The notes: generated by a model not told the origin, from the sequence alone. 64,000 nt of DNA from an uncultured Clostridium sp. (GCA_937885015.1 CALAAS010000003.1:295-64294), one strand, 5' to 3'. Positions 28,284 to 37,877 are shown, counted from the first letter of the stretch. Made by a program: numbers and translations.

Positions 28284-29415
28284 AGGTAACCATGCGGCTG
28301 TATACTGCCTTTGCCATATCCAGAAGCGGAAAAAGCGTCAGCGCACCAGTACCTTCTCCCAGGCAAAGGCCCGCCTGCACCGCCGGTTTCAGACCCAGAA
28401 GCTCCAGAAGGAGATTGGCAGCCGGTTCTGCCGATACGTGGGACGCCAAAAGGAAATCCGGAACCCTTTCGTCCACAGCCATGGCCGCTGCCGCTGCTGC
28501 CGCAGAAATCAGGCCGTCCAGCACCACAGGAATGCGAAACACTGCTGCTCCGAGACAGGCTCCGGCCATGGCTGCCAGTTCAAAGCCGCCCACTTTTGAG
28601 AGCACATCCAGACCATCTTCCGGATCCGGCCGATGTCCTGCAATCCCCTCCCGGATTACCTGAATCTTTCTGGCGAGGCCCTCCGAGGAAAGTCCTGCCC
28701 CCCGCCCCGTTACCAGAGCCGGGTCTTCCCTCAGGAATACGGCAGCCACCGCGCTGCTGGTGGTGGTATTTCCGATTCCCATCTCTCCCACAGCCAGGAT
28801 CTGATATCCTCTCTCCTTCAAAACCCGAACAGCCTCCATGCCAGTCAGGACAGACACCAGTGTTTCCCGCCGCGTCATGGCTGGCCTCTTTAGGAAATCA
28901 GCCGTTCCATGGGCAACTTTCCGCTCCAAAAGCGGATGACAGGTTCCCTGTTTCGGAAGCGGGCAGGCAATCCCCACATCCACCGGAAACACCTGGACCC
29001 CGGCACATTCCGCCATCAGGCTGGAACAGCTTTTTCCCCGGGTAATCCCGGATGTTACGGAGGCTGTAACCTCCTGACCAGTCTGGGTTACCCCTTCTGC
29101 CACAATCCCATTGTCTCCGCAGAAGACCACCAGAGCCCGACGCTCTATGGATACCGCCTCACATCCCTGAATTCCGGCAATCCGTGCCAGATTCTCTTCC
29201 AGAACTCCCAGGCTTCCAAGGGGCTTGGCCACCCGGCTCCAGTGAAGCTGCGCCGCCTCCCGGCTCTTTCTGCTGATCGGCTTAATCCGGCTGAGTCTCT
29301 CCTGAAGAATAGTCTCCAGTCTTTCCTGAGAAAACCCCCGAAAATCTTCACAACCCTCCAGGCTCTCTCCTGCCATGGCTTTCCCCTCCCTCTGTAACCA
29401 GTAAAAGTGCTGCAA
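28243..29415 (-). CDS. cobT: Nicotinate-nucleotide--dimethylbenzimidazole phosphoribosyltransferase
   Basis: Signature VGEMGIGNTTTSSA. The likely start is the Met at 29376 (GAGGGAGGGGAAAGCC before the ATG). Confidence 0.9.
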   Translation of the reverse strand: MQHFYWLQREGKAMAGESLEGCEDFRGFSQERLETILQERLSRIKPISRKSREAAQLHWSRVAKPLGSLGVLEENLARIAGIQGCEAVSIERRALVVFCGDNGIVAEGVTQTGQEVTASVTSGITRGKSCSSLMAECAGVQVFPVDVGIACPLPKQGTCHPLLERKVAHGTADFLKRPAMTRRETLVSVLTGMEAVRVLKERGYQILAVGEMGIGNTTTSSAVAAVFLREDPALVTGRGAGLSSEGLARKIQVIREGIAGHRPDPEDGLDVLSKVGGFELAAMAGACLGAAVFRIPVVLDGLISAAAAAAAMAVDERVPDFLLASHVSAEPAANLLLELLGLKPAVQAGLCLGEGTGALTLFPLLDMAKAVYSRMVTFEGMAIEAYQPLT

Positions 29416-29450
29416 ACCTCAAAGTTATCTGATTTTGCAGCACTTTTTCT
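29401..29450. terminator. Terminator-like hairpin between the efflux operon and cobT
   Basis: 10-bp stem GTGCTGCAAA/TTTGCAGCAC (29407-29416 pairs with 29434-29443). It is flanked by TTTTAC on the minus-strand reading and TTTTTCT on the plus-strand reading. Only about 30 nt separate it from the cobT start. Confidence 0.55.
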
Positions 29451-29549: not shown

Positions 29550-30737
29550 TCATACTCCCTGCATCGCCCAGTGATATTCCTCGTAGGCCTCGCACAGTGC
29601 GATTTCCGCCGCCTCCTTCTGGGCCTCTTTCTGGGCATAAACGGCCTCTCCGGCCAGAAAGTCTCCCTGGCTGACTGCGCCGGAGTCCCTCTGTATTTTC
29701 AATGCTTCATAATCCTTCCTGGCCGCCTCCCAGGCAGCCACTGCCCCGTCCCGTTCCAGCATAAGCGCCTGGAGTTCCTGAAACAGGCTGTCCATGGCAA
29801 CGCTTGCACTTCCCCTGGCCTCATCAATCTTCTGGCTCCTGAGCTTTCGCTCTGCATCTCCCGAAGCCGTGGAACGGCGCAGTGATTTTACATTGGAATC
29901 TGCAATCACCGCCTTTTCCCGATCCTCCTCAAGATTCAGAGCCTCCAGCTGCCCTGCCGTAATAATCGGCATTTCGCCAACCTCGATCTCCGTCCCTCCT
30001 TTTCCCAGGAAAACAGCCAGCTTCCGTCTGGCCGCATCTGCCTGATCCCGCATGGACTGGGCGGATATCCCGGCAGAAGCCGCCGTCTTCTCCGCCTGAA
30101 GAGCCTCCAGCTCCGTACAGAGGCCAGCTGCCTTCTCGCTCTGCCTTTTCTGAAAAGCTGCCTTACTGGCCTCCGCGTTTTTTTCTGCAGCAACAGCCTG
30201 TGCCTCCAGCTGCCTGCAGGTTCCAAAGAGAACCTGAGCAGCTTTTACCTGAGTCCAGACTGCCTGGTCTCTGGATCGCTGGCTGGAAACGGAATTCAGC
30301 GATTCCATCGCTTTCCGATATTGCCTGGCGGAGGAAGAAAGTACCTTGGCATTCTGTTCATATTGAGCGATCACCGATTCCTCCGCCCCCGCCTCTTCCA
30401 GTTCATCCACCCGGTGGTTCATATCGCTGATCCCGCTGACCATGGTATCGTAGGCCTCCTGGTAAATTGCCAGGCTGGTCTCATACCCGTTCTGATCCGT
30501 AACGGCATCGGCGTTTCCCTGACGCACCAGTTCCTCCAGTTCTTCGTACTGAATAACGGCGTCCTCCAGATTCCCCTCTGCCAGAGTCGGAACAGAAAAA
30601 GCCATGCACATTCCGAGACTGATGGATGCAGCGCGCGCCATAAAACGCCATTTCCAGCTCCTGTTCTGAGTTCCGCTTTGCACCTTTTCCATCTCCTTTT
30701 CTTTAAAACTCTTTTTACGAAGCCGATGCCAGTCCAT
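29550..30737 (-). CDS. TolC/OEP-family-like coiled-coil exported protein (second of two)
   Basis: Signal-peptide-like MARAASISLGMCMAFSVPTLAEG after alternative starts at 30692 or 30641. Long Ala/Gln/Glu-rich helical repeats. Ends ...CEAYEEYHWAMQGV, as OEP repeats do. The start codon is uncertain. Confidence 0.55.
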   Translation of the reverse strand: MDWHRLRKKSFKEKEMEKVQSGTQNRSWKWRFMARAASISLGMCMAFSVPTLAEGNLEDAVIQYEELEELVRQGNADAVTDQNGYETSLAIYQEAYDTMVSGISDMNHRVDELEEAGAEESVIAQYEQNAKVLSSSARQYRKAMESLNSVSSQRSRDQAVWTQVKAAQVLFGTCRQLEAQAVAAEKNAEASKAAFQKRQSEKAAGLCTELEALQAEKTAASAGISAQSMRDQADAARRKLAVFLGKGGTEIEVGEMPIITAGQLEALNLEEDREKAVIADSNVKSLRRSTASGDAERKLRSQKIDEARGSASVAMDSLFQELQALMLERDGAVAAWEAARKDYEALKIQRDSGAVSQGDFLAGEAVYAQKEAQKEAAEIALCEAYEEYHWAMQGV

Positions 30738-31881
30738 TTACGGCCCACTGGTAATTCAGCTGGGCTTCCAGAAGTCCCATGGACGCCGTTTCCATCTGTG
30801 CTCCGGCTTCCGTCAGGGAATATGTCTCATTGGAAGCTTCCATCCGGCTGACAAGGCCTGCCGCCAGCTTTAGATCCATCGTCTCCTTCGTCTTTTTCTC
30901 CAGTTCCAGCGCTCTCCTGGCCTGATCATACTGAGTTTCTGCTAAAACCAGTGACTGCCAGGCTGACTGGACGCTGGACTTTACCGTCTCCCTTCCTGCT
31001 TCCAGAGATGTCTGATACTGTTCTTTCAGCGTACTCTCCATGGCATTATGCGCCTTCCGTTTCAGGATCCTGAGATCATAATTCTGCTCCAGAGCCTTTT
31101 CCATATCTGCTTCCAAACTGACGGATGCACTCATATTTTCCTGCGGCTCTGGCAGCTGCCCAATCTCCGTCTCATCGCCATAATTCCATCCCAGACTCAT
31201 ACATAACGTCTCTCGCGTCGATTCGATGGAATCTTTTGCCTCCTCCACTGCAGCCTGCGCATTCAGAAGCGTTTCCTTTGCATTTAGGACATCGCTCTCT
31301 GTTGCACTGCCCGCAGAGGCTTTGATAAGGATCGCCTCGTAATCCGCCTGCGCGCTCTGTACGCTGTTTTCACTGGTTTCCAGCGTCTTCACAGCCTTCC
31401 AGTAAGAGATCATCTGTTTCTGGGCCGTCTGTACCAGGCTTTTTTCTGTTTTCGTGTATCCCCAGAGGATCACATCACTGTCGGAAACATTTTCGTCTCC
31501 TTTTTCACGCATCTGTCTGGCAGAAGCCTCGCTGCTCTGGGCCGCGGCCAGCCGGCTCCCGTAATTGGCGTCATCCGTATCCGGATATTCAATGCTGGCT
31601 TCAATCTCATCGGCCGCATCGTAGTATTCCTGCGCAATCTCATCGCTGTCTTTTCCCCGGTAATCCTGGTACGCCAGCCGGTTTTCCGTTACGGTGCTGT
31701 TGTATTCCGAAATCAGATCTGCGATTTCGTCAAATTCCAGTTTATTGTCCTGAAGTGCTGCCCATTTTTCTTCTGAATAGGCAAAGGGCGGACTGGCAGC
31801 CAGCGCCCATTCCGGCAACAGCAAAGACAGAGAAAGAGCCATCGAAAATGCAGCCGGAATTTTTCTGTTTATGTATTTCAT
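30715..31881 (-). CDS. TolC/OEP-family-like exported protein (first of two)
   Basis: Signal peptide MKYINRKIPAAFSMALSLSLLLPEWALAA. OEP-type motifs LEADMEKALEQNYDLRILKRK, SATESDVLNAKETLLNAQ and C-terminal LEAQLNYQWAVNGL. Confidence 0.6.
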   Translation of the reverse strand: MKYINRKIPAAFSMALSLSLLLPEWALAASPPFAYSEEKWAALQDNKLEFDEIADLISEYNSTVTENRLAYQDYRGKDSDEIAQEYYDAADEIEASIEYPDTDDANYGSRLAAAQSSEASARQMREKGDENVSDSDVILWGYTKTEKSLVQTAQKQMISYWKAVKTLETSENSVQSAQADYEAILIKASAGSATESDVLNAKETLLNAQAAVEEAKDSIESTRETLCMSLGWNYGDETEIGQLPEPQENMSASVSLEADMEKALEQNYDLRILKRKAHNAMESTLKEQYQTSLEAGRETVKSSVQSAWQSLVLAETQYDQARRALELEKKTKETMDLKLAAGLVSRMEASNETYSLTEAGAQMETASMGLLEAQLNYQWAVNGLASAS

Positions 31882-31907
31882 ATCCGCTTTTCCTTCCTTT
31901 CCCCGGA

Positions 31908-34733
31908 TCAGTCGATATCCGGAATCGGATCCTGTTTCCGGCGGCTCAGCAGAGCATAGTAAACCGGAACCATAAAAAGTGCCACGAAGATCCCGACTGT
32001 CAGGCCTCCGATATCTACGATCGCCAGTCCCTGTGTCGTGGAACCGCTGCTTCCGATGGCCAGCGCCATGGGGATCATGGACAGGATCGTGGTAAGGCTC
32101 GTCATCAGGATCGGTCGGATTCTTGTCGCCCCCGCCTCGATCAGCGCTTTCCTCAGTCCCATTTCCATCCGGTACTGATTTACCGTATCCACGTACAGGA
32201 TTCCGTTGTTGACAACCGTTCCCACAAGAATCAGGAATCCGAGCAGCGATGTCATACTGATGCTTACGCCCGTCATCTTCAGAAGTCCGAAGGAACCCAC
32301 CAGGCTGAAGGGAATTGTCGTCATAACCATGACGGAAAACTTGACTGACTCAAACTGGGCCGCCATGACAACGAATACGAGAAACGTGGCTGTGGCGATC
32401 GCCCCGTACAGAGAACTGAACTCTTCCTGCATCATCCTGTCCCGGCTATTCTGGCCAATAGTAATCGTTCCGGTCAGGTTAGGGGAAATAACCTCGTTAT
32501 TTATAACCTCCTGCACCGCATCTCCCGTATAATCAGCGGATATGGTAATTTCAAAGGAACCGTCTGTTTTGGAAATGGAGGATGGACTGTCTTCAAATAC
32601 CACCTCTGCCACATCGGTCAGGGGTACCTTCGTTCCGTCCGATGATGTCAGCAGGATATCGCTGATCTGATCCACCGTTTCATACTGCCCCTCCGGATAT
32701 TCCACGTTCACAGAAATATCCTCGCCGTCTATTTTTAATGTCGTTGCTTCTACACCGCTTACCATCTGATTCAGGGTATTTCCGATTTCAGAAGCCGTCA
32801 GGCCGTATGTCTTCGCCATGACCGGATCCACTTTCAGTGTGACGATCGGCGCATTGTTTTCAATGCTGGAGTGGACGTTGATCACATCGCTCCGCGCCGT
32901 CATTTCCTTTACGATCCGGTCGCTGACCTCCTTCAGTTCATCGTACTGGGATCCATGGAGGATCACTTCGTACCCGCGCTGCCGTCCCATAAAGCTCATG
33001 GATGCCGACGCCTCCACATCAATGGTACAGTTCTCGATCCCATCCATTTCACTCTGCCACAGATCTGCCACATCCTCCGTATCCATGGTCCGGTCTTCCT
33101 TCAGATAAGCCGTGATGGTTCCGCTTTCCTGGTTATACCGCAGTACATAGGAATCCACCTGGTCGCTGGCTGCCACAATGGCCTCTGCCTCATTTAAGGC
33201 CCCCTCTATCTTTTCCTGGCGGAGTCCCGGTCTGGTTTCAATGGAAACACTCACGGTACCCGTGTCATCCGCCGTCATAAGTTCCGTCTGCATATTCCCG
33301 GCCAGGATCAGCGTTGCCGCCAGGATCAGGACGGAAACGCCCATGACCATTGCCTTGCGGTCCAGAAGGCGCTCCATGATCTCCCGGTACATATTCTGAA
33401 GTTTTTCCACCGGGCGCCCCATCAGGGCCCTTCTGGCCTCTGTTGGCTTGTAAAACAGATAGCACAGCGGCACGATCGTCATGGCCGAAAGAAGGGAGGC
33501 CGACATACAGAATACCACGGTATAACCCAGGGGTTTAAACATCTGCCCTGTCATTCCGTCGAGAAAAGCCAGGGGAATAAATACAACACACGTCGTGATC
33601 GTCGATCCAATGATAGAATTGATAACCACGCCCGTTCCGTGGAGCGCCGCCGAAAAATATCCCAGCGCCCCTTTATCTTCCTGGGCCGCTGTCGCCCGAA
33701 AGCAGCTTTCCAGCACTACAATGGAATTATCCACCATCATGCCCACGCCAAGCACCAGCGCACTCATGGTAATAACATTCAGAGAAAACCCGGCCATGGT
33801 CAGGACGATCAGAGAAAGAAGGATGGAGACGGGAATTGAGCTTCCCACGATCAAAGACGCCTTATAATCTCCGAAAAACAGGAAAATAATAAACATGGAA
33901 ATCACAACGGCCATGACCATGGTTTCCGCCACATCGTACAGCGAATCCAGAATAGTTTCCGACGTGTCATTGGCCACCTCGATGGTCAGGTCAGAATCAT
34001 CGGCCATCAGTTCCTCTACGGTCTTGCGGACTGCCTTTGAAACCTCCATGTCTGTGGCATCCTGCTGCTTCTGAATGGAAACGGTAATGGTCTCCTGGCC
34101 GCTGTAACGGGAAATACCGCCCCGGTCCTCTTCTGCCTCATAAATATCTGCCACATCAGAGAGGGATATAATCTGCCCGGCCGGAATCCGGATTGGAATA
34201 TCTTTAAGTTCCTCCACCTCCTTCGTCTTCAGAGAGGTCGTAACCGAAAGCTCCAGATTTCCCGCCACCGCTTCTCCGGACGGGGAAGAGAGGTTTGCCT
34301 GGCTGATGGCATTCGACACATCGCTCATGGTAAGTCCATAGAGATCCATTTTTTCAGACTGCAGTTCAATCTTTACGTATTTGGAGGAACCGCCCATGGT
34401 CTCAATATTGGCGATGGTGCTGATCCTCTCCAGCTCCGGGACGATCTGCTGATCCACGTAGTCGTAAAGGTTATCCTGGCTGCTGTGGCTGATGGAAAGC
34501 ATCATTCCGGCTCCGGAATTCATATTCATTGCCATGACGCTAGGTTCCACATCTTCCGGCAGACTCCGCTCGATCCCGTCCAGCTTCTGTTTCAGCGCAT
34601 CGTATGCCTCATCCATATCCGGCATCTGCTCAAGTTTCGCGGAAAACACGGAAGAAATCCCGAATACGAGCAGGGTCAGAAGAGCCATAACCGTGGTGAC
34701 CGGGTGTTTCAGAACGTATTTTGTAACTCCCAT
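31908..34733 (-). CDS. RND (AcrB/HAE family) efflux permease, apparently lacking part of the first periplasmic subdomain
   Basis: 941 aa with 12-TM RND architecture and two large loops. TM1 (VMALLTLLVFGISSVF), then LEQMPDMD joins directly to EAYDALKQKLDGIERSLPEDV. In AcrB-type pumps about 57 residues separate the equivalent motifs. Confidence 0.88.
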   Translation of the reverse strand: MGVTKYVLKHPVTTVMALLTLLVFGISSVFSAKLEQMPDMDEAYDALKQKLDGIERSLPEDVEPSVMAMNMNSGAGMMLSISHSSQDNLYDYVDQQIVPELERISTIANIETMGGSSKYVKIELQSEKMDLYGLTMSDVSNAISQANLSSPSGEAVAGNLELSVTTSLKTKEVEELKDIPIRIPAGQIISLSDVADIYEAEEDRGGISRYSGQETITVSIQKQQDATDMEVSKAVRKTVEELMADDSDLTIEVANDTSETILDSLYDVAETMVMAVVISMFIIFLFFGDYKASLIVGSSIPVSILLSLIVLTMAGFSLNVITMSALVLGVGMMVDNSIVVLESCFRATAAQEDKGALGYFSAALHGTGVVINSIIGSTITTCVVFIPLAFLDGMTGQMFKPLGYTVVFCMSASLLSAMTIVPLCYLFYKPTEARRALMGRPVEKLQNMYREIMERLLDRKAMVMGVSVLILAATLILAGNMQTELMTADDTGTVSVSIETRPGLRQEKIEGALNEAEAIVAASDQVDSYVLRYNQESGTITAYLKEDRTMDTEDVADLWQSEMDGIENCTIDVEASASMSFMGRQRGYEVILHGSQYDELKEVSDRIVKEMTARSDVINVHSSIENNAPIVTLKVDPVMAKTYGLTASEIGNTLNQMVSGVEATTLKIDGEDISVNVEYPEGQYETVDQISDILLTSSDGTKVPLTDVAEVVFEDSPSSISKTDGSFEITISADYTGDAVQEVINNEVISPNLTGTITIGQNSRDRMMQEEFSSLYGAIATATFLVFVVMAAQFESVKFSVMVMTTIPFSLVGSFGLLKMTGVSISMTSLLGFLILVGTVVNNGILYVDTVNQYRMEMGLRKALIEAGATRIRPILMTSLTTILSMIPMALAIGSSGSTTQGLAIVDIGGLTVGIFVALFMVPVYYALLSRRKQDPIPDID

Positions 34734-34735
34734 AT

Positions 34736-35908
34736 TTAAACTCCCCCGTTCTCTTTTATCTCCGGGTTTTCCCCGTCAACCGCGCTGTCCTGTCCCTGAA
34801 GGCGTACGGTGGATCCTTCATATAATTGGGAACTCCAGGTGCTGATTACCAGCTCGTCCCCCGAAAGTCCCGATTTAATCTCTGCCAGCTGGGAATCATA
34901 CAGGCCTACCTCCACCTCTTTTTTATGAACCGTTCCGTTTTCATAGACATAAACCTGGCCAACGCCCCCGTCATAGTAAACCGCATCAACCGGCACCGTC
35001 ATGACCTGATCTGCCTTTTCTGATACAACGGTTATTCTGACGGAAGTTCCCGCCGAAAGGGCATCCGCCTCGGGAAGCTCCGCCTTTACCTTAAACAGAC
35101 CGTTTCCTTCTTCGGCTATGGCGCTGACATCTGTGATCGTTCCGTCATAGGAGGAACCATTTTTTTCTATAATCACGCCATCCCCCTGGTTCAGATTTTG
35201 GATCACCCGCTCTGTCACATAAAAAGAAACCCGCTTTTCTCCCTCTCCGGAAATGACGCAGATCGTATCCTGCTGGTTCACGTGATCGTACACATCCAGG
35301 TCAAAGGTTTCTACTTTTCCGGAAATGGGGGATGTAATGGAGCTGTATTCGACCTGTTTGTTATAATTCAGCTTCGCAGATTCATAGTTCAGCTTCGCCG
35401 TTTTCTCCGCATTCTGGTACTGCTCCCATTCCTGATCGGAAATTGCACCGGCCTCGTAAAGAAGCTGCATTCTGGATCGGGTCCCAGAGGCCTCCGAAAG
35501 GGAAATGGCCGCAGAATCCATCGTATTTTTAGCGCTTTCCACCTGCTCCGTATCAATGGTGCAGAGCAGCTGGCCCGCTTCCACCATCTGGCCGGCACTG
35601 ACGCCAACCTTTGTCACATCGCCGGAGGCCTTCGCATACACGTACACCACATCTGATGCCTCCACCGTCCCGGAAGTGCTGGTGGTTCGTTCAATGCTTC
35701 CTGTCTTGGGGTTCTCTGCATTTACTGTCGCCATATTATCTGCCTGCCCGGCCATCTGCGGCCCTCCCGGCCCTCCAGCCTTTCTTCCTCCGCCGCCCAG
35801 GCGAACGGCAATCAGAACCAGAAAAACTGCACATGTCAGGCCAATCACAGCCGTTCTTTTTTTATGGCGCAGAGCCGATTCTTTCAGTAAACGCATCTTT
35901 TCTCTCAT
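34736..35908 (-). CDS. Efflux RND periplasmic adaptor (membrane fusion protein, HlyD-like)
   Basis: N-terminal TM anchor (AVIGLTCAVFLVLIAV), a lipoyl-like hairpin (GTVEASDVVYVYAKASGDVTKVGVSAGQMVEAGQLL), a coiled-coil segment and a beta-barrel C-terminus. Confidence 0.85.
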   Translation of the reverse strand: MREKMRLLKESALRHKKRTAVIGLTCAVFLVLIAVRLGGGGRKAGGPGGPQMAGQADNMATVNAENPKTGSIERTTSTSGTVEASDVVYVYAKASGDVTKVGVSAGQMVEAGQLLCTIDTEQVESAKNTMDSAAISLSEASGTRSRMQLLYEAGAISDQEWEQYQNAEKTAKLNYESAKLNYNKQVEYSSITSPISGKVETFDLDVYDHVNQQDTICVISGEGEKRVSFYVTERVIQNLNQGDGVIIEKNGSSYDGTITDVSAIAEEGNGLFKVKAELPEADALSAGTSVRITVVSEKADQVMTVPVDAVYYDGGVGQVYVYENGTVHKKEVEVGLYDSQLAEIKSGLSGDELVISTWSSQLYEGSTVRLQGQDSAVDGENPEIKENGGV

Positions 35909-36144
35909 ATTTTCTTCATTCCTCTCTCCACAGGATACTGGTTTTTAAAGTTTTTCAAGTTCAAGCACTACTATACCACCCCTTTTTAAATGGAATTTCA
36001 ACCGAATATAAACTGGACTTAAACGAACCGTGAAATTTTTGTGATTCCCTGTCCCACTTCTTTTCTTTTTTCCGGAAAATGTTTACAATAGATATAACGA
36101 TATAATAAATATGAAACAACCACTCAAAAAAGGCGGATACTTTC

Positions 36145-36822
36145 ATGTTTCATGTTCTTGTGGTAGAGGATGATGCCAAGCTGCGCTCTCTCTTTTGCAC
36201 CGTTCTGACCAACAGCGGCTATCTTGCGATTCCTGCAGGCAGCGGCGAACAGGCTCTCTCTCTTCTTGACTCGGAATACGTAGATCTGATTATTTCGGAT
36301 ATTATGATGCCGGGAATGGACGGATATGCGCTGATCCGGCATCTGCGGAGCAGCGGCTATTCCATGCCCATTCTGATCATTACGGCAAAAGAACGGTTTG
36401 AAGATAAACAGAAAGGATTTCAGGCAGGCACCGATGATTACATGGTAAAACCCATTGATGTAAATGAAATGATCCTTCGGGTCGGCGCGCTTTTAAAGCG
36501 GGCCAGGATCGCCACCGAACGGCGCATCGTCTGCGGCTCTACCGTTCTGGATTACGATGCCCTGACAGCCTCCGTGAACGGACAGGAAACGCTGCTGCCC
36601 CAGAAGGAATTTTACCTTCTCTACAAGCTGCTTTCCTACCCCAATAAGATTTTCACGAGACAGCAGCTGATGGATGAGATCTGGGGCATTGATTCCACCA
36701 CCGATGAGCGCACAGTGGATGTACATATCAACCGGCTTAGGGAACGGTTCCGGACCTGTGAGGATTTCCATATCCTGACCGTCCGCGGCCTGGGTTATAA
36801 AGCAGTGAGGACAGAGCCATGA
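36145..36822 (+). CDS. OmpR/PhoB-family response regulator
   Basis: Receiver motifs VLVVEDD, DLIISDIMMPGMDG and ILIITAK. Winged-helix output domain with TVDVHINRLRERF. Confidence 0.92.
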   Translation: MFHVLVVEDDAKLRSLFCTVLTNSGYLAIPAGSGEQALSLLDSEYVDLIISDIMMPGMDGYALIRHLRSSGYSMPILIITAKERFEDKQKGFQAGTDDYMVKPIDVNEMILRVGALLKRARIATERRIVCGSTVLDYDALTASVNGQETLLPQKEFYLLYKLLSYPNKIFTRQQLMDEIWGIDSTTDERTVDVHINRLRERFRTCEDFHILTVRGLGYKAVRTEP

Positions 36823-37877
36823 GAAAAAAATTCTTTAAACTTCCTCTGTACTGGCTGTATTTTCTCGTTCTGATTTTTCTGACCCTGTCCATTATGCCTG
36901 TCATGGCCGGATATGTCGTCAGCCTGCTGGCCAACGGGAAATCGGGGCGGGAGGCAGCGCTTCGCTTTAACCCTCTTTTCCCCAGTATTGTTTTTCTCCT
37001 CAGCAGCTTTATTTTGAGCCTGTTTATCTCTCTGGCCCTCTGGTTCAAAATCCTGATCCCATTAAGCGCCATCCAGCAGGCTGCCCGGCAGGTTGCCGCC
37101 GGAGATTTCTCTGTCTGCCTTTCCAAAACACCGGCGCTTCGGGAAATCCAGGAGCTGAACGATAACTTTAACCGCATGGTTCAGAAACTGAACAGCATTG
37201 AATCTCTGCGAAATGATTTCGTTACCACCATTTCCCACGAATTCAAAACGCCGCTGGCTGCCATCGAAGGGTATGCCACACTGCTGCAGGCGCCGGGACT
37301 TTCCGAGTCTGACCGAAAGGAATACGCCCGCATCATCATAGACAGCACCCGCCAGCTCACAACCATGGCAGGGAATATTCTTCCGCTTTCCCGGCTGGAA
37401 CAGCAGGAAATCGTGACAAATCAATCTTCTTTTCGGTTGGATGAGCAGATCCGCCAGACCATTCTTCTTCTGGAACCTCTCTGGGAAAAGAAAGAGCTGG
37501 AACTGGATATCGAACTGGAACCGGTACAATATTTCGGAAATGCAGAAATGATGTTTCAGGTCTGGACAAACCTGATCCAGAATGCCATCAAATTCACACC
37601 GGATCAGGGACTTTTGTCCATCGGCCTGCAAATTTCAGAAGCGGCTGTCACCGTTTATGTAAAAGACAGCGGCATCGGGATGAATGAAACCACCCGGAAA
37701 CGAATTTTTGAAAAATTTTACAGCGGTTCCCAGGATCAGAACCAGAAAGGGAACGGCCTGGGACTCTCCATTGCCAAACGGATCGTGGATTTGAGCCGAG
37801 GCTCCATCCAGGTGGAGAGCTTTCCGGGAAAGGGAAGCTGCTTTACGGTCACGCTTCCCAGGTCCAGTCCTTCGTAA
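36819..37877 (+). CDS. Intramembrane-sensing type histidine kinase
   Basis: The start overlaps the RR stop (ATGA). Two TM helices are separated by a loop of only about 14 aa (ANGKSGREAALRFNP). HAMP domain, H-box TISHEFKTPLAAIEGY, N-box QNAIKFT, G1 DSGIGM and G2 GNGLGLSIA. Confidence 0.9.
   Translation: MRKKFFKLPLYWLYFLVLIFLTLSIMPVMAGYVVSLLANGKSGREAALRFNPLFPSIVFLLSSFILSLFISLALWFKILIPLSAIQQAARQVAAGDFSVCLSKTPALREIQELNDNFNRMVQKLNSIESLRNDFVTTISHEFKTPLAAIEGYATLLQAPGLSESDRKEYARIIIDSTRQLTTMAGNILPLSRLEQQEIVTNQSSFRLDEQIRQTILLLEPLWEKKELELDIELEPVQYFGNAEMMFQVWTNLIQNAIKFTPDQGLLSIGLQISEAAVTVYVKDSGIGMNETTRKRIFEKFYSGSQDQNQKGNGLGLSIAKRIVDLSRGSIQVESFPGKGSCFTVTLPRSSPS

Follow-up and report, generated by a model that had tools for sequence, protein, structure and literature searches.

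A conserved efflux module with two TolC-like proteins predicted to lack a β-barrel in a monoderm gut Clostridium

The stretch of DNA analysed here (64,000 nt, hereafter the window) comes from an uncultured Clostridium sp. (GCA_937885015.1, CALAAS010000003.1:295-64294). At positions 29550–37877 it carries an efflux module consisting of a resistance-nodulation-division (RND) permease, a periplasmic adaptor, two TolC-like proteins (OEP1 and OEP2) and a two-component system (TCS). A preliminary description of the window had placed six open reading frames (ORFs) here, all of which were recovered, and had found outer-membrane-channel homologues out of place in an apparently monoderm Firmicute. Structure prediction indicates that OEP1 and OEP2 have retained the α-helical tunnel fold of TolC and are without its four-strand contribution to a barrel. 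Taken as a whole, it is considered fairly probable that the locus represents a conserved envelope-efflux module of the Lachnospiraceae, with two barrel-less TolC-like subunits and, in this species, a damaged RND gene.

OEP2 matches the outer membrane efflux protein (OEP) family PF02321 with 49.4 bits (cut-off 22) in two stretches, over profile positions 98–187 only. More than 180 homologues were found; records from Clostridium and Lachnospiraceae call them 'TolC family protein'. Its signal peptide ends at ALA/AS and is followed by the invariant N-terminal motif ASPPFAYSEEKW..L.DNKLE. OEP1, for which gene callers also use an alternative start at 30683 (giving 377 aa), is acidic and has a signal peptide without a lipobox. 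It had zero Pfam matches, the best profile being TIGR01845 (18 bits, E 8e-4). Its similarity to OEP2 (tblastn E 6.6e-13; blastp E 1.4e-15) marks it as a diverged paralogue, and 8 homologues were detected by word-based search and 322 by exhaustive phmmer.

Single-chain AlphaFold2 (AF2) models of both proteins were all helical, with a predicted local distance difference test (pLDDT) of 86.9 for OEP2 and 89.5 for OEP1 (numbered on a 364-aa query) and a predicted template-modelling score (pTM) of 0.79 for each. No strand of at least three residues was present in either model. With Foldseek against the PDB, the top 44 matches of each protein were all outer-membrane factors (OMFs) at a probability of 1.0, among them TolC, OprM, CmeC, CusC, VceC and MtrE, with TM-scores for OEP2 mostly of 0.4–0.6. 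Beyond these matches the E-values leap from about 1e-3 to above 0.1 for both proteins. The earlier assignment of the two as TolC-like is thus borne out, as their structure predictions match OMFs only, OEP2 exceeds the Pfam threshold over part of the profile and OEP1 can be connected to the family by its paralogy to OEP2.

In the OMF/TolC family each protomer contributes four β-strands to a 12-stranded outer-membrane barrel. Helices 135–189 and 283–340 of OEP2 are taken here to be H3 and H7 of the TolC topology (1EK9), and on this mapping hairpins S1-S2 and S4-S5 of the barrel would presumably be expected at the H2/H3 and H6/H7 junctions. In the OEP2 model these junctions consist of residues 131–134 (4 residues) and 280–282 (3 residues) and contain no strands, while those of OEP1 comprise 2 and 5 residues, respectively; all are modelled with high local pLDDT. 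The long helices of OEP1 span 119–172 and 263–320, with tip turns at 173–177 and 321–325, and a G-x-x-(T/S) tip signature is kept in both repeats of OEP1 and OEP2. The OEP2 turns at 190–194 and 341–345 were also considered as sites of the missing hairpins and were rejected, being periplasmic tips: in profile alignment the conserved turn 'AGSAT' (190–194) falls on the tip turns that VceC and SilC have on the periplasmic side.

The mature length of approximately 360 residues, against 428 for TolC, fits the loss of a barrel. All four TolC-like proteins of the source genome are acidic, their only hydrophobic stretch being the signal peptide; neither OEP1 nor OEP2 has a membrane anchor. The PF02321 matches in this genome cover the second half of the OEP repeat only (H3, tip and H4). 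The same second-half-only coverage was seen in 143 of 150 among the matches listed, from 121 genomes of the class. Since neither model contains a β-barrel segment, OEP1 and OEP2 would not be the outer-membrane channels that they had been taken for, and most of the paradox of such a channel in a monoderm is thereby removed.

The host itself is a monoderm Clostridium of the Lachnospiraceae, in agreement with the preliminary description. The source genome (G000; 2.62 Mb, 97.55% complete) had no domain match to Omp85/BamA, LpxC, SLH or CWB2, and Omp85 was found in 0 of the 22 genomes of the genus. Named relatives with the module include Clostridium fessum, [C.] symbiosum, C. transplantifaecale and Otoolea muris, further carriers being species of Enterocloster, Lacrimispora, Ventrimonas and Hungatella, all gut Lachnospiraceae. 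A cryptic diderm, in which the TolC-like proteins would be true outer-membrane channels, would account for OEP-family genes in an operon of the RND tripartite type. This explanation has next to no likelihood given the absence of Omp85/BamA, LpxC and SLH, the lack of Omp85 throughout the genus, the zero β-strands in both models and relatives that are ordinary Lachnospiraceae. It should also be noted that the C-terminal domain of Spo0A (PF08769) had no match in this genome despite the small acid-soluble spore protein (SASP) gene reported earlier from the window; it may sit in the unassembled part.

The occurrence of two TolC-like genes side by side had been regarded as a further oddity, whereas a pair of different TolC-like genes turns out to be the rule. 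Across 80 loci from named genomes, an adaptor, an RND permease, an OEP2-type gene and a second, divergent TolC-like gene nearly always follow one another in this order where the contig suffices. Most of these loci also have a divergent regulator-kinase pair; several are without it and one subtype has a TetR-like regulator. This two-subunit rule across nearly all of the 80 related loci is a new finding. A paralogous operon lies on contig C44 of the source genome (27652–35021) and encodes a TetR-like regulator, an adaptor, a 1016-aa RND permease and two TolC-like proteins. OEP2 and one of the latter (C44-OEPb) clearly belong to a single conserved type (E 1.6e-50); the partner of each evolves fast. 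A scheme of two orthologous OEP types was therefore rejected, the clear type being only OEP2/C44-OEPb and the partner genes being divergent. The presence of two different subunits per pump would imply some hetero-assembly of the two. Four bins titled as Prevotella sp., Paludibacteraceae or Selenomonadales (L040, L057, L072 and L077) also carry the module, with OEP2 identities of 44–62%; these titles are probably wrong.

The adaptor has an N-terminal transmembrane (TM) anchor and an α-hairpin with an RLS tip motif, R146-x3-L150-x6-S157, which is conserved in 10 of 10 adaptors (orthologues and the paralogue). It corresponds to R119/L123/S130 of MexA, mutation of which abolishes adaptor-OMF binding (PMC4446572). 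Because the RLS motif of the adaptor and the tip signatures of the TolC-like proteins have been retained, tip-to-tip docking of the TolC-like proteins on the adaptor would be the most economical reading. The secreted subunits would dock in this manner onto an adaptor hexamer, together making up a helical exit duct free of any membrane, by which the pump would reach into the cell wall or across it. A more specific arrangement, in which OEP1 and OEP2 assemble as a hetero-oligomer or as two end-to-end trimers and build a helical 'chimney' from the RND pump through the peptidoglycan, can be put forward only tentatively. If true, the chimney would be a four-component envelope-spanning architecture unlike the Gram-negative tripartite pumps, and one widespread in Clostridia.

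A different location for the TolC-like proteins was proposed by Stubenrauch et al. (2022; PMC8809574) for C. difficile, namely a proteinaceous S-layer that houses the TolC-like protein and replaces the outer membrane. When that organism sheds its S-layer proteins, a TolC-like protein is released with them (PMC8809574), and acidic, soluble, secreted proteins such as those found here could in principle associate with a surface layer. Against its application to the present module stand the lack of SLH and CWB2 anchor domains in the genome, although an S-layer of another kind may occur, and the lack of a barrel or any other layer-embedding domain in the OEP models. An S-layer location is thus held to be improbable here, and docking on the adaptor is preferred.

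In the histidine kinase about 15 residues separate the two TM helices, so that the very short extracytoplasmic loop noted previously is confirmed. Among 10 aligned sequences this loop measures approximately 10–20 residues and is variable in length and sequence, with P27, G31 and P55 invariant and the HAMP and catalytic parts well conserved. AdeS and BaeS were among the NCBIfam matches of the kinase, and the response regulator is 77–87% identical across the genus. By its architecture the kinase can be placed in the broad intramembrane-sensing class, with a SaeS/VanS/AdeS-like layout. In Mascher's classification, BceS-like kinases have two TM helices, a very short loop and no further cytoplasmic signalling domain, and are coupled to a BceAB-type ABC transporter. 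LiaS-like kinases combine HAMP and HisKA_3 with a NarL-type regulator partner. Neither of these labels, both of which had been attached to the kinase, could be kept. A HAMP domain is present and no ABC transporter was found in the module in about 90 loci, which speaks against BceS; HisKA (PF00512) and an OmpR-type regulator (Trans_reg_C) are found in place of the HisKA_3 and NarL types of LiaS. Divergent transcription of a TCS and an RND operon is the usual arrangement in AdeRS, BaeSR and CusRS.

It had further been suggested that the kinase is a BceS-type intramembrane sensor of transporter activity and that the pump itself is the sensor. The two TM helices and the short, poorly conserved loop make extracellular ligand binding improbable, and most loci keep the TCS and the pump together, both of which would suit this suggestion. 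It is still judged unlikely, because the kinase combines a HAMP domain with the lack of an ABC partner, because its layout and its AdeS/BaeS matches fit the SaeS/VanS/AdeS types, and because the C44 pump has a TetR-like regulator and several loci have no TCS at all.

On the pump strand, three contiguous 11-bp direct repeats (GTTTAAGTCCA, GTTTATATTCG and GTTGAAATTCC) extend from 36024 to 35992, with an extended −10 (TGGTATAGT, 35978 to 35970) located 3′ of them. Alignment of orthologous intergenic regions showed an AAC triplet every 11 bp in this conserved block. Judged by eye, the three repeats are a putative OmpR/PhoB-type activator site at the −35 position, through which the phosphorylated regulator would activate the operon. 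The TCS promoter region on the other side (36080–36125) contains a 7-nt insertion and is without the TGTGGTATAAT-like extended −10 of relatives. Apart from these, a promoter-like match of the form TTTTCA-17-TATAAT was observed on the minus strand from 29527 to 29499; such matches are not enriched over shuffles.

The module lies between two runs of cobalamin (B12) genes, as had been reported, B12 genes being found in the scans of both flanks, and it was investigated how this position compares with that in relatives. Of 21 congeners, 17 have an orthologue-level counterpart of OEP2 (at least 45% identity) and four have paralogue-level matches only. In the relatives that were fetched, the six-gene order was complete in ten; in G003 the adaptor is truncated, and in G004 the contig ends past OEP2. 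RND identities (65–84%) rank across species like those of CobT (54–63%). The site of the module differs between congeners. In G015, G019, G009, G001, G006 and G020 it is flanked by homologues of two genes that stand side by side on contig C12 of the source genome, and in G017 such neighbours occur on one side of it only. In G000, G003 and G018 it is found between the cbiA side and cobT, while the G012 and G013 copies border on cobT alone. The genes cbiA and cobT are directly adjacent in G019 and G009 (gaps of about 30 and 100 nt, respectively), the module being elsewhere, and on contig C12 of the source genome (approximately 64931–65668) the two neighbour genes occur with no module between them, which represents an apparent empty ancestral site.

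Because the module site differs among congeners and the ancestral site is empty in the source genome, these comparisons indicate a module that is vertically inherited in the genus and was relocated within the genome in one subclade, splitting the B12 cluster. The preliminary description had raised the possibility of an insertion into the cluster. This stands insofar as the position is not ancestral, cbiA and cobT being adjacent in G019 and G009, and falls insofar as what moved is a genus-wide module and not foreign DNA. Horizontal acquisition was accordingly rejected, given the genus-wide occurrence, the identities that follow CobT and the empty site on contig C12. A mobile element or genomic island was likewise rejected. 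No integrase or transposase domains were found in the six module genes or in the flanking genes scanned and no repeats at the module borders, in line with what had been seen before; the GC content (0.49–0.56 in and around the block, 0.43–0.56 across the window) shows no compositional anomaly. No functional link between the module and cobalamin was found, and the relocation looks neutral, without an evident connection to cobalamin.

In this species the RND gene carries a deletion. The PF00873 match of the permease starts at profile position 97, positions 1–96 being largely unmatched, and the protein runs from '...LEQMPDM' directly into 'DEAYD...', with 60 residues missing in frame. These residues form the β-α-β core of the PN1 subdomain and are present in 11 of 11 orthologues (approximately 1000 aa) as well as in the C44 paralogue. 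The deletion is bounded by an 8-nt direct repeat, GATATGGA, the remaining copy of which forms codons D39-M40-D41; in the DNA of G003 and G012 both copies flank the 180 nt that are absent from the window. An identical 941-aa RND protein was present in 37 blocks of the collection and was read on 23 contigs, from several independent metagenomes, and the deletion occurs in every assembly of this species found. Since the same protein recurs across independent metagenomes, the deletion is real, and it is widespread in this species. The deleted allele would leave this copy of the pump probably impaired, or even inactive, and the full-length C44 paralogue would then likely be the working system.

Further lesions were detected around the module. 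In two assemblies of this species (L035 and L036, at 913–1589 in both) the response regulator is broken by a 1-nt indel into pieces of 152 aa and 76 aa, and in the nearest species, G003, only 151 C-terminal residues of the adaptor remain (L020, 10236–10691) and the operon has lost its conserved −10. From the kinase through OEP2 (about 7 kb) there are zero to three differences among five assemblies, while OEP1 and cobT differ by approximately 1–5% in two of the five (L032 and L035), a pattern pointing to a local sweep or to a recombination boundary close to where OEP2 meets OEP1. The lesions can be read as early erosion of the module within this subclade.

The same lesions could also mark a decaying relic, a module unneeded after its move, with a dead pump and TolC-like genes that either serve the C44 pump or await lesions of their own. 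Loss of the PN1 core in all assemblies found of this species, the regulator frameshifted in some strains, the TCS promoter with its insertion and degenerate −10 relative to relatives, and the damaged adaptor and lost −10 of G003 would all fit a relic. On the other hand, only one of the six genes falls short of full length, the RND deletion is in frame with 941 remaining codons free of stops, the differences between strains in OEP1 are mostly synonymous (12 against 7 non-synonymous), and complete modules are found in G018, G012 and G013 of the same subclade. A relic is for these reasons a serious but somewhat doubtful explanation, and a conserved module with one damaged component is preferred. 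Some of these observations also weigh against the account given here as a whole: the remaining module genes are intact ORFs and, together with the mostly synonymous changes in OEP1, point to a module that is not simply dead, while the effect of the RND deletion was deduced from its position. To the same side belong OEP1 falling below the Pfam OEP threshold, the monomeric state of the models, the contacts among the TolC-like proteins and the adaptor being inferred, and the promoter, which was read by eye. Promoter and terminator consensus matches were not enriched over shuffles, and the promoter reading rests for this reason on cross-species conservation.

The features of the locus are listed in Table 1. 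The regulator-kinase pair is divergent from the operon of adaptor, RND, OEP2 and OEP1, and the cobalamin genes on its two sides are on the same strand as one another. The upstream flank consists of cbiD, two methylases, cbiG, a cbiJ-methylase fusion, cbiA, a 192-aa ORF without a Pfam match and a Dus-like gene, the last two separating cbiA from the kinase. The downstream flank comprises cobT, cobU, cobS, cbiB, an aminotransferase, cobQ and cbiC. No Rfam family, a cobalamin riboswitch included, reached its gathering score anywhere in the window, large B12 cluster and all.

Table 1. Features of the efflux module and its borders, in window coordinates.
Feature	Coordinates	Strand	Basis
OEP1 (second, fast-evolving TolC-like subunit)	29550..30737	−	395-aa ORF; paralogy to OEP2, AF2/Foldseek
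OEP2 (conserved TolC-like subunit, 388 aa)	30715..31881	−	PF02321 match
RND permease, AcrB-type, 941 aa	31908..34733	−	PF00873, 586 bits
RND deletion junction, lone remaining copy of repeat GATATGGA	34612..34619	−	DNA alignment
Membrane fusion protein (MFP) / periplasmic adaptor, 390 aa	34736..35908	−	TIGR01730, 179.7 bits (cut-off 94.9)
Putative pump-operon promoter	35970..36024	−	Conserved intergenic block, read by eye
Response regulator, OmpR/PhoB family, 225 aa	36145..36822	+	PF00072 and PF00486
Histidine kinase, 352 aa	36819..37877	+	TM1, ~15-aa loop, TM2, HAMP, HisKA (PF00512), HATPase_c
Terminator-like hairpin, 17-nt arms, 94% complementary	29400..29450	−	Between end of efflux operon and cobT

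TolC-like proteins have been described as 'surprisingly widespread' in monoderm Firmicutes, in hosts without the β-barrel assembly machinery (BAM) and often in pump operons; in the same work a Phyre2 model of the C. difficile protein showed an 'omission' in the barrel domain, and one operon (L. gingivalis) had two TolC-like genes (PMC8809574). An RND operon with a TolC orthologue has also been described in C. difficile (PMC11170357), while a large 2021 review of tripartite pumps is silent on OMF homologues in monoderms. Prevalence was estimated here from 401 genomes of the phylum with at least 90% completeness, of which 276 had OEP matches and 99 had Omp85. OEP genes were present in 95 of the 99 Omp85-positive genomes and in 181 of the 302 Omp85-negative ones, i.e., in approximately 60% of the BamA-less genomes sampled. 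Strong full-profile OEP matches came from Omp85-positive genomes, except for two fragmented bins. An OMF homologue in a monoderm is thus less out of place than had been thought: the phenomenon is already published (PMC8809574; PMC11170357) and this locus is another case of it.

What is added to the published work, namely the lack of a barrel in either subunit, the subunit pair, the docking motif and the relocation history, can be regarded as useful additions. They bear on the question of TolC without an outer membrane, which is here met by apparently tunnel-only proteins, a conserved unlike pair and a retained docking motif. A duct spanning the wall in abundant human gut Clostridia would also bear on the tolerance of the microbiota to bile acids and drugs. 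Because the pump gene is damaged, the specific value of this window is lower, and C. fessum or C. symbiosum would be better subjects.

In comparison with the systems of Stubenrauch et al. (2022; PMC8809574), the module is alike in having TolC homologues of BAM-less monoderms beside adaptor and pump genes. That study used 12 examples and Phyre2 models and proposed a hydrophilic barrel in the S-layer, whereas the AF2 models here are without barrel strands, the two-subunit rule extends over 80 loci and the genome has neither SLH nor CWB2. The C. difficile 630 operon CD630_24050-24080 (MarR, MFP, RND and TolC-like; PMC11170357 and a thesis cited there), compared by its description, shares the RND permease, a shorter adaptor and a TolC-fold partner; it is regulated by MarR and has a single TolC-like gene, in contrast to the TCS and two such genes of the present module. 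Among kinases of the BceS, LiaS and SaeS types, the similarity lies in a length of less than 400 aa, two TM helices and a linker of less than 25 residues; the present kinase has HAMP and HisKA with an OmpR-type partner, a SaeS/VanS-like layout, is without a BceAB-type ABC transporter and differs from the HisKA_3/NarL pair of LiaSR. With AcrAB-TolC, MexAB-OprM and AdeRS-AdeABC the module has in common the RND family, the RLS hairpin tip and the TolC α-tunnel with its tip turns, and with adeRS-adeABC also the divergent two-component regulator. It differs from these Gram-negative tripartite pumps, which use a homotrimer of one OMF, in its two TolC-like subunits, in the lack of an outer membrane and of a predicted barrel, and in the PN1 deletion in the RND of this species.

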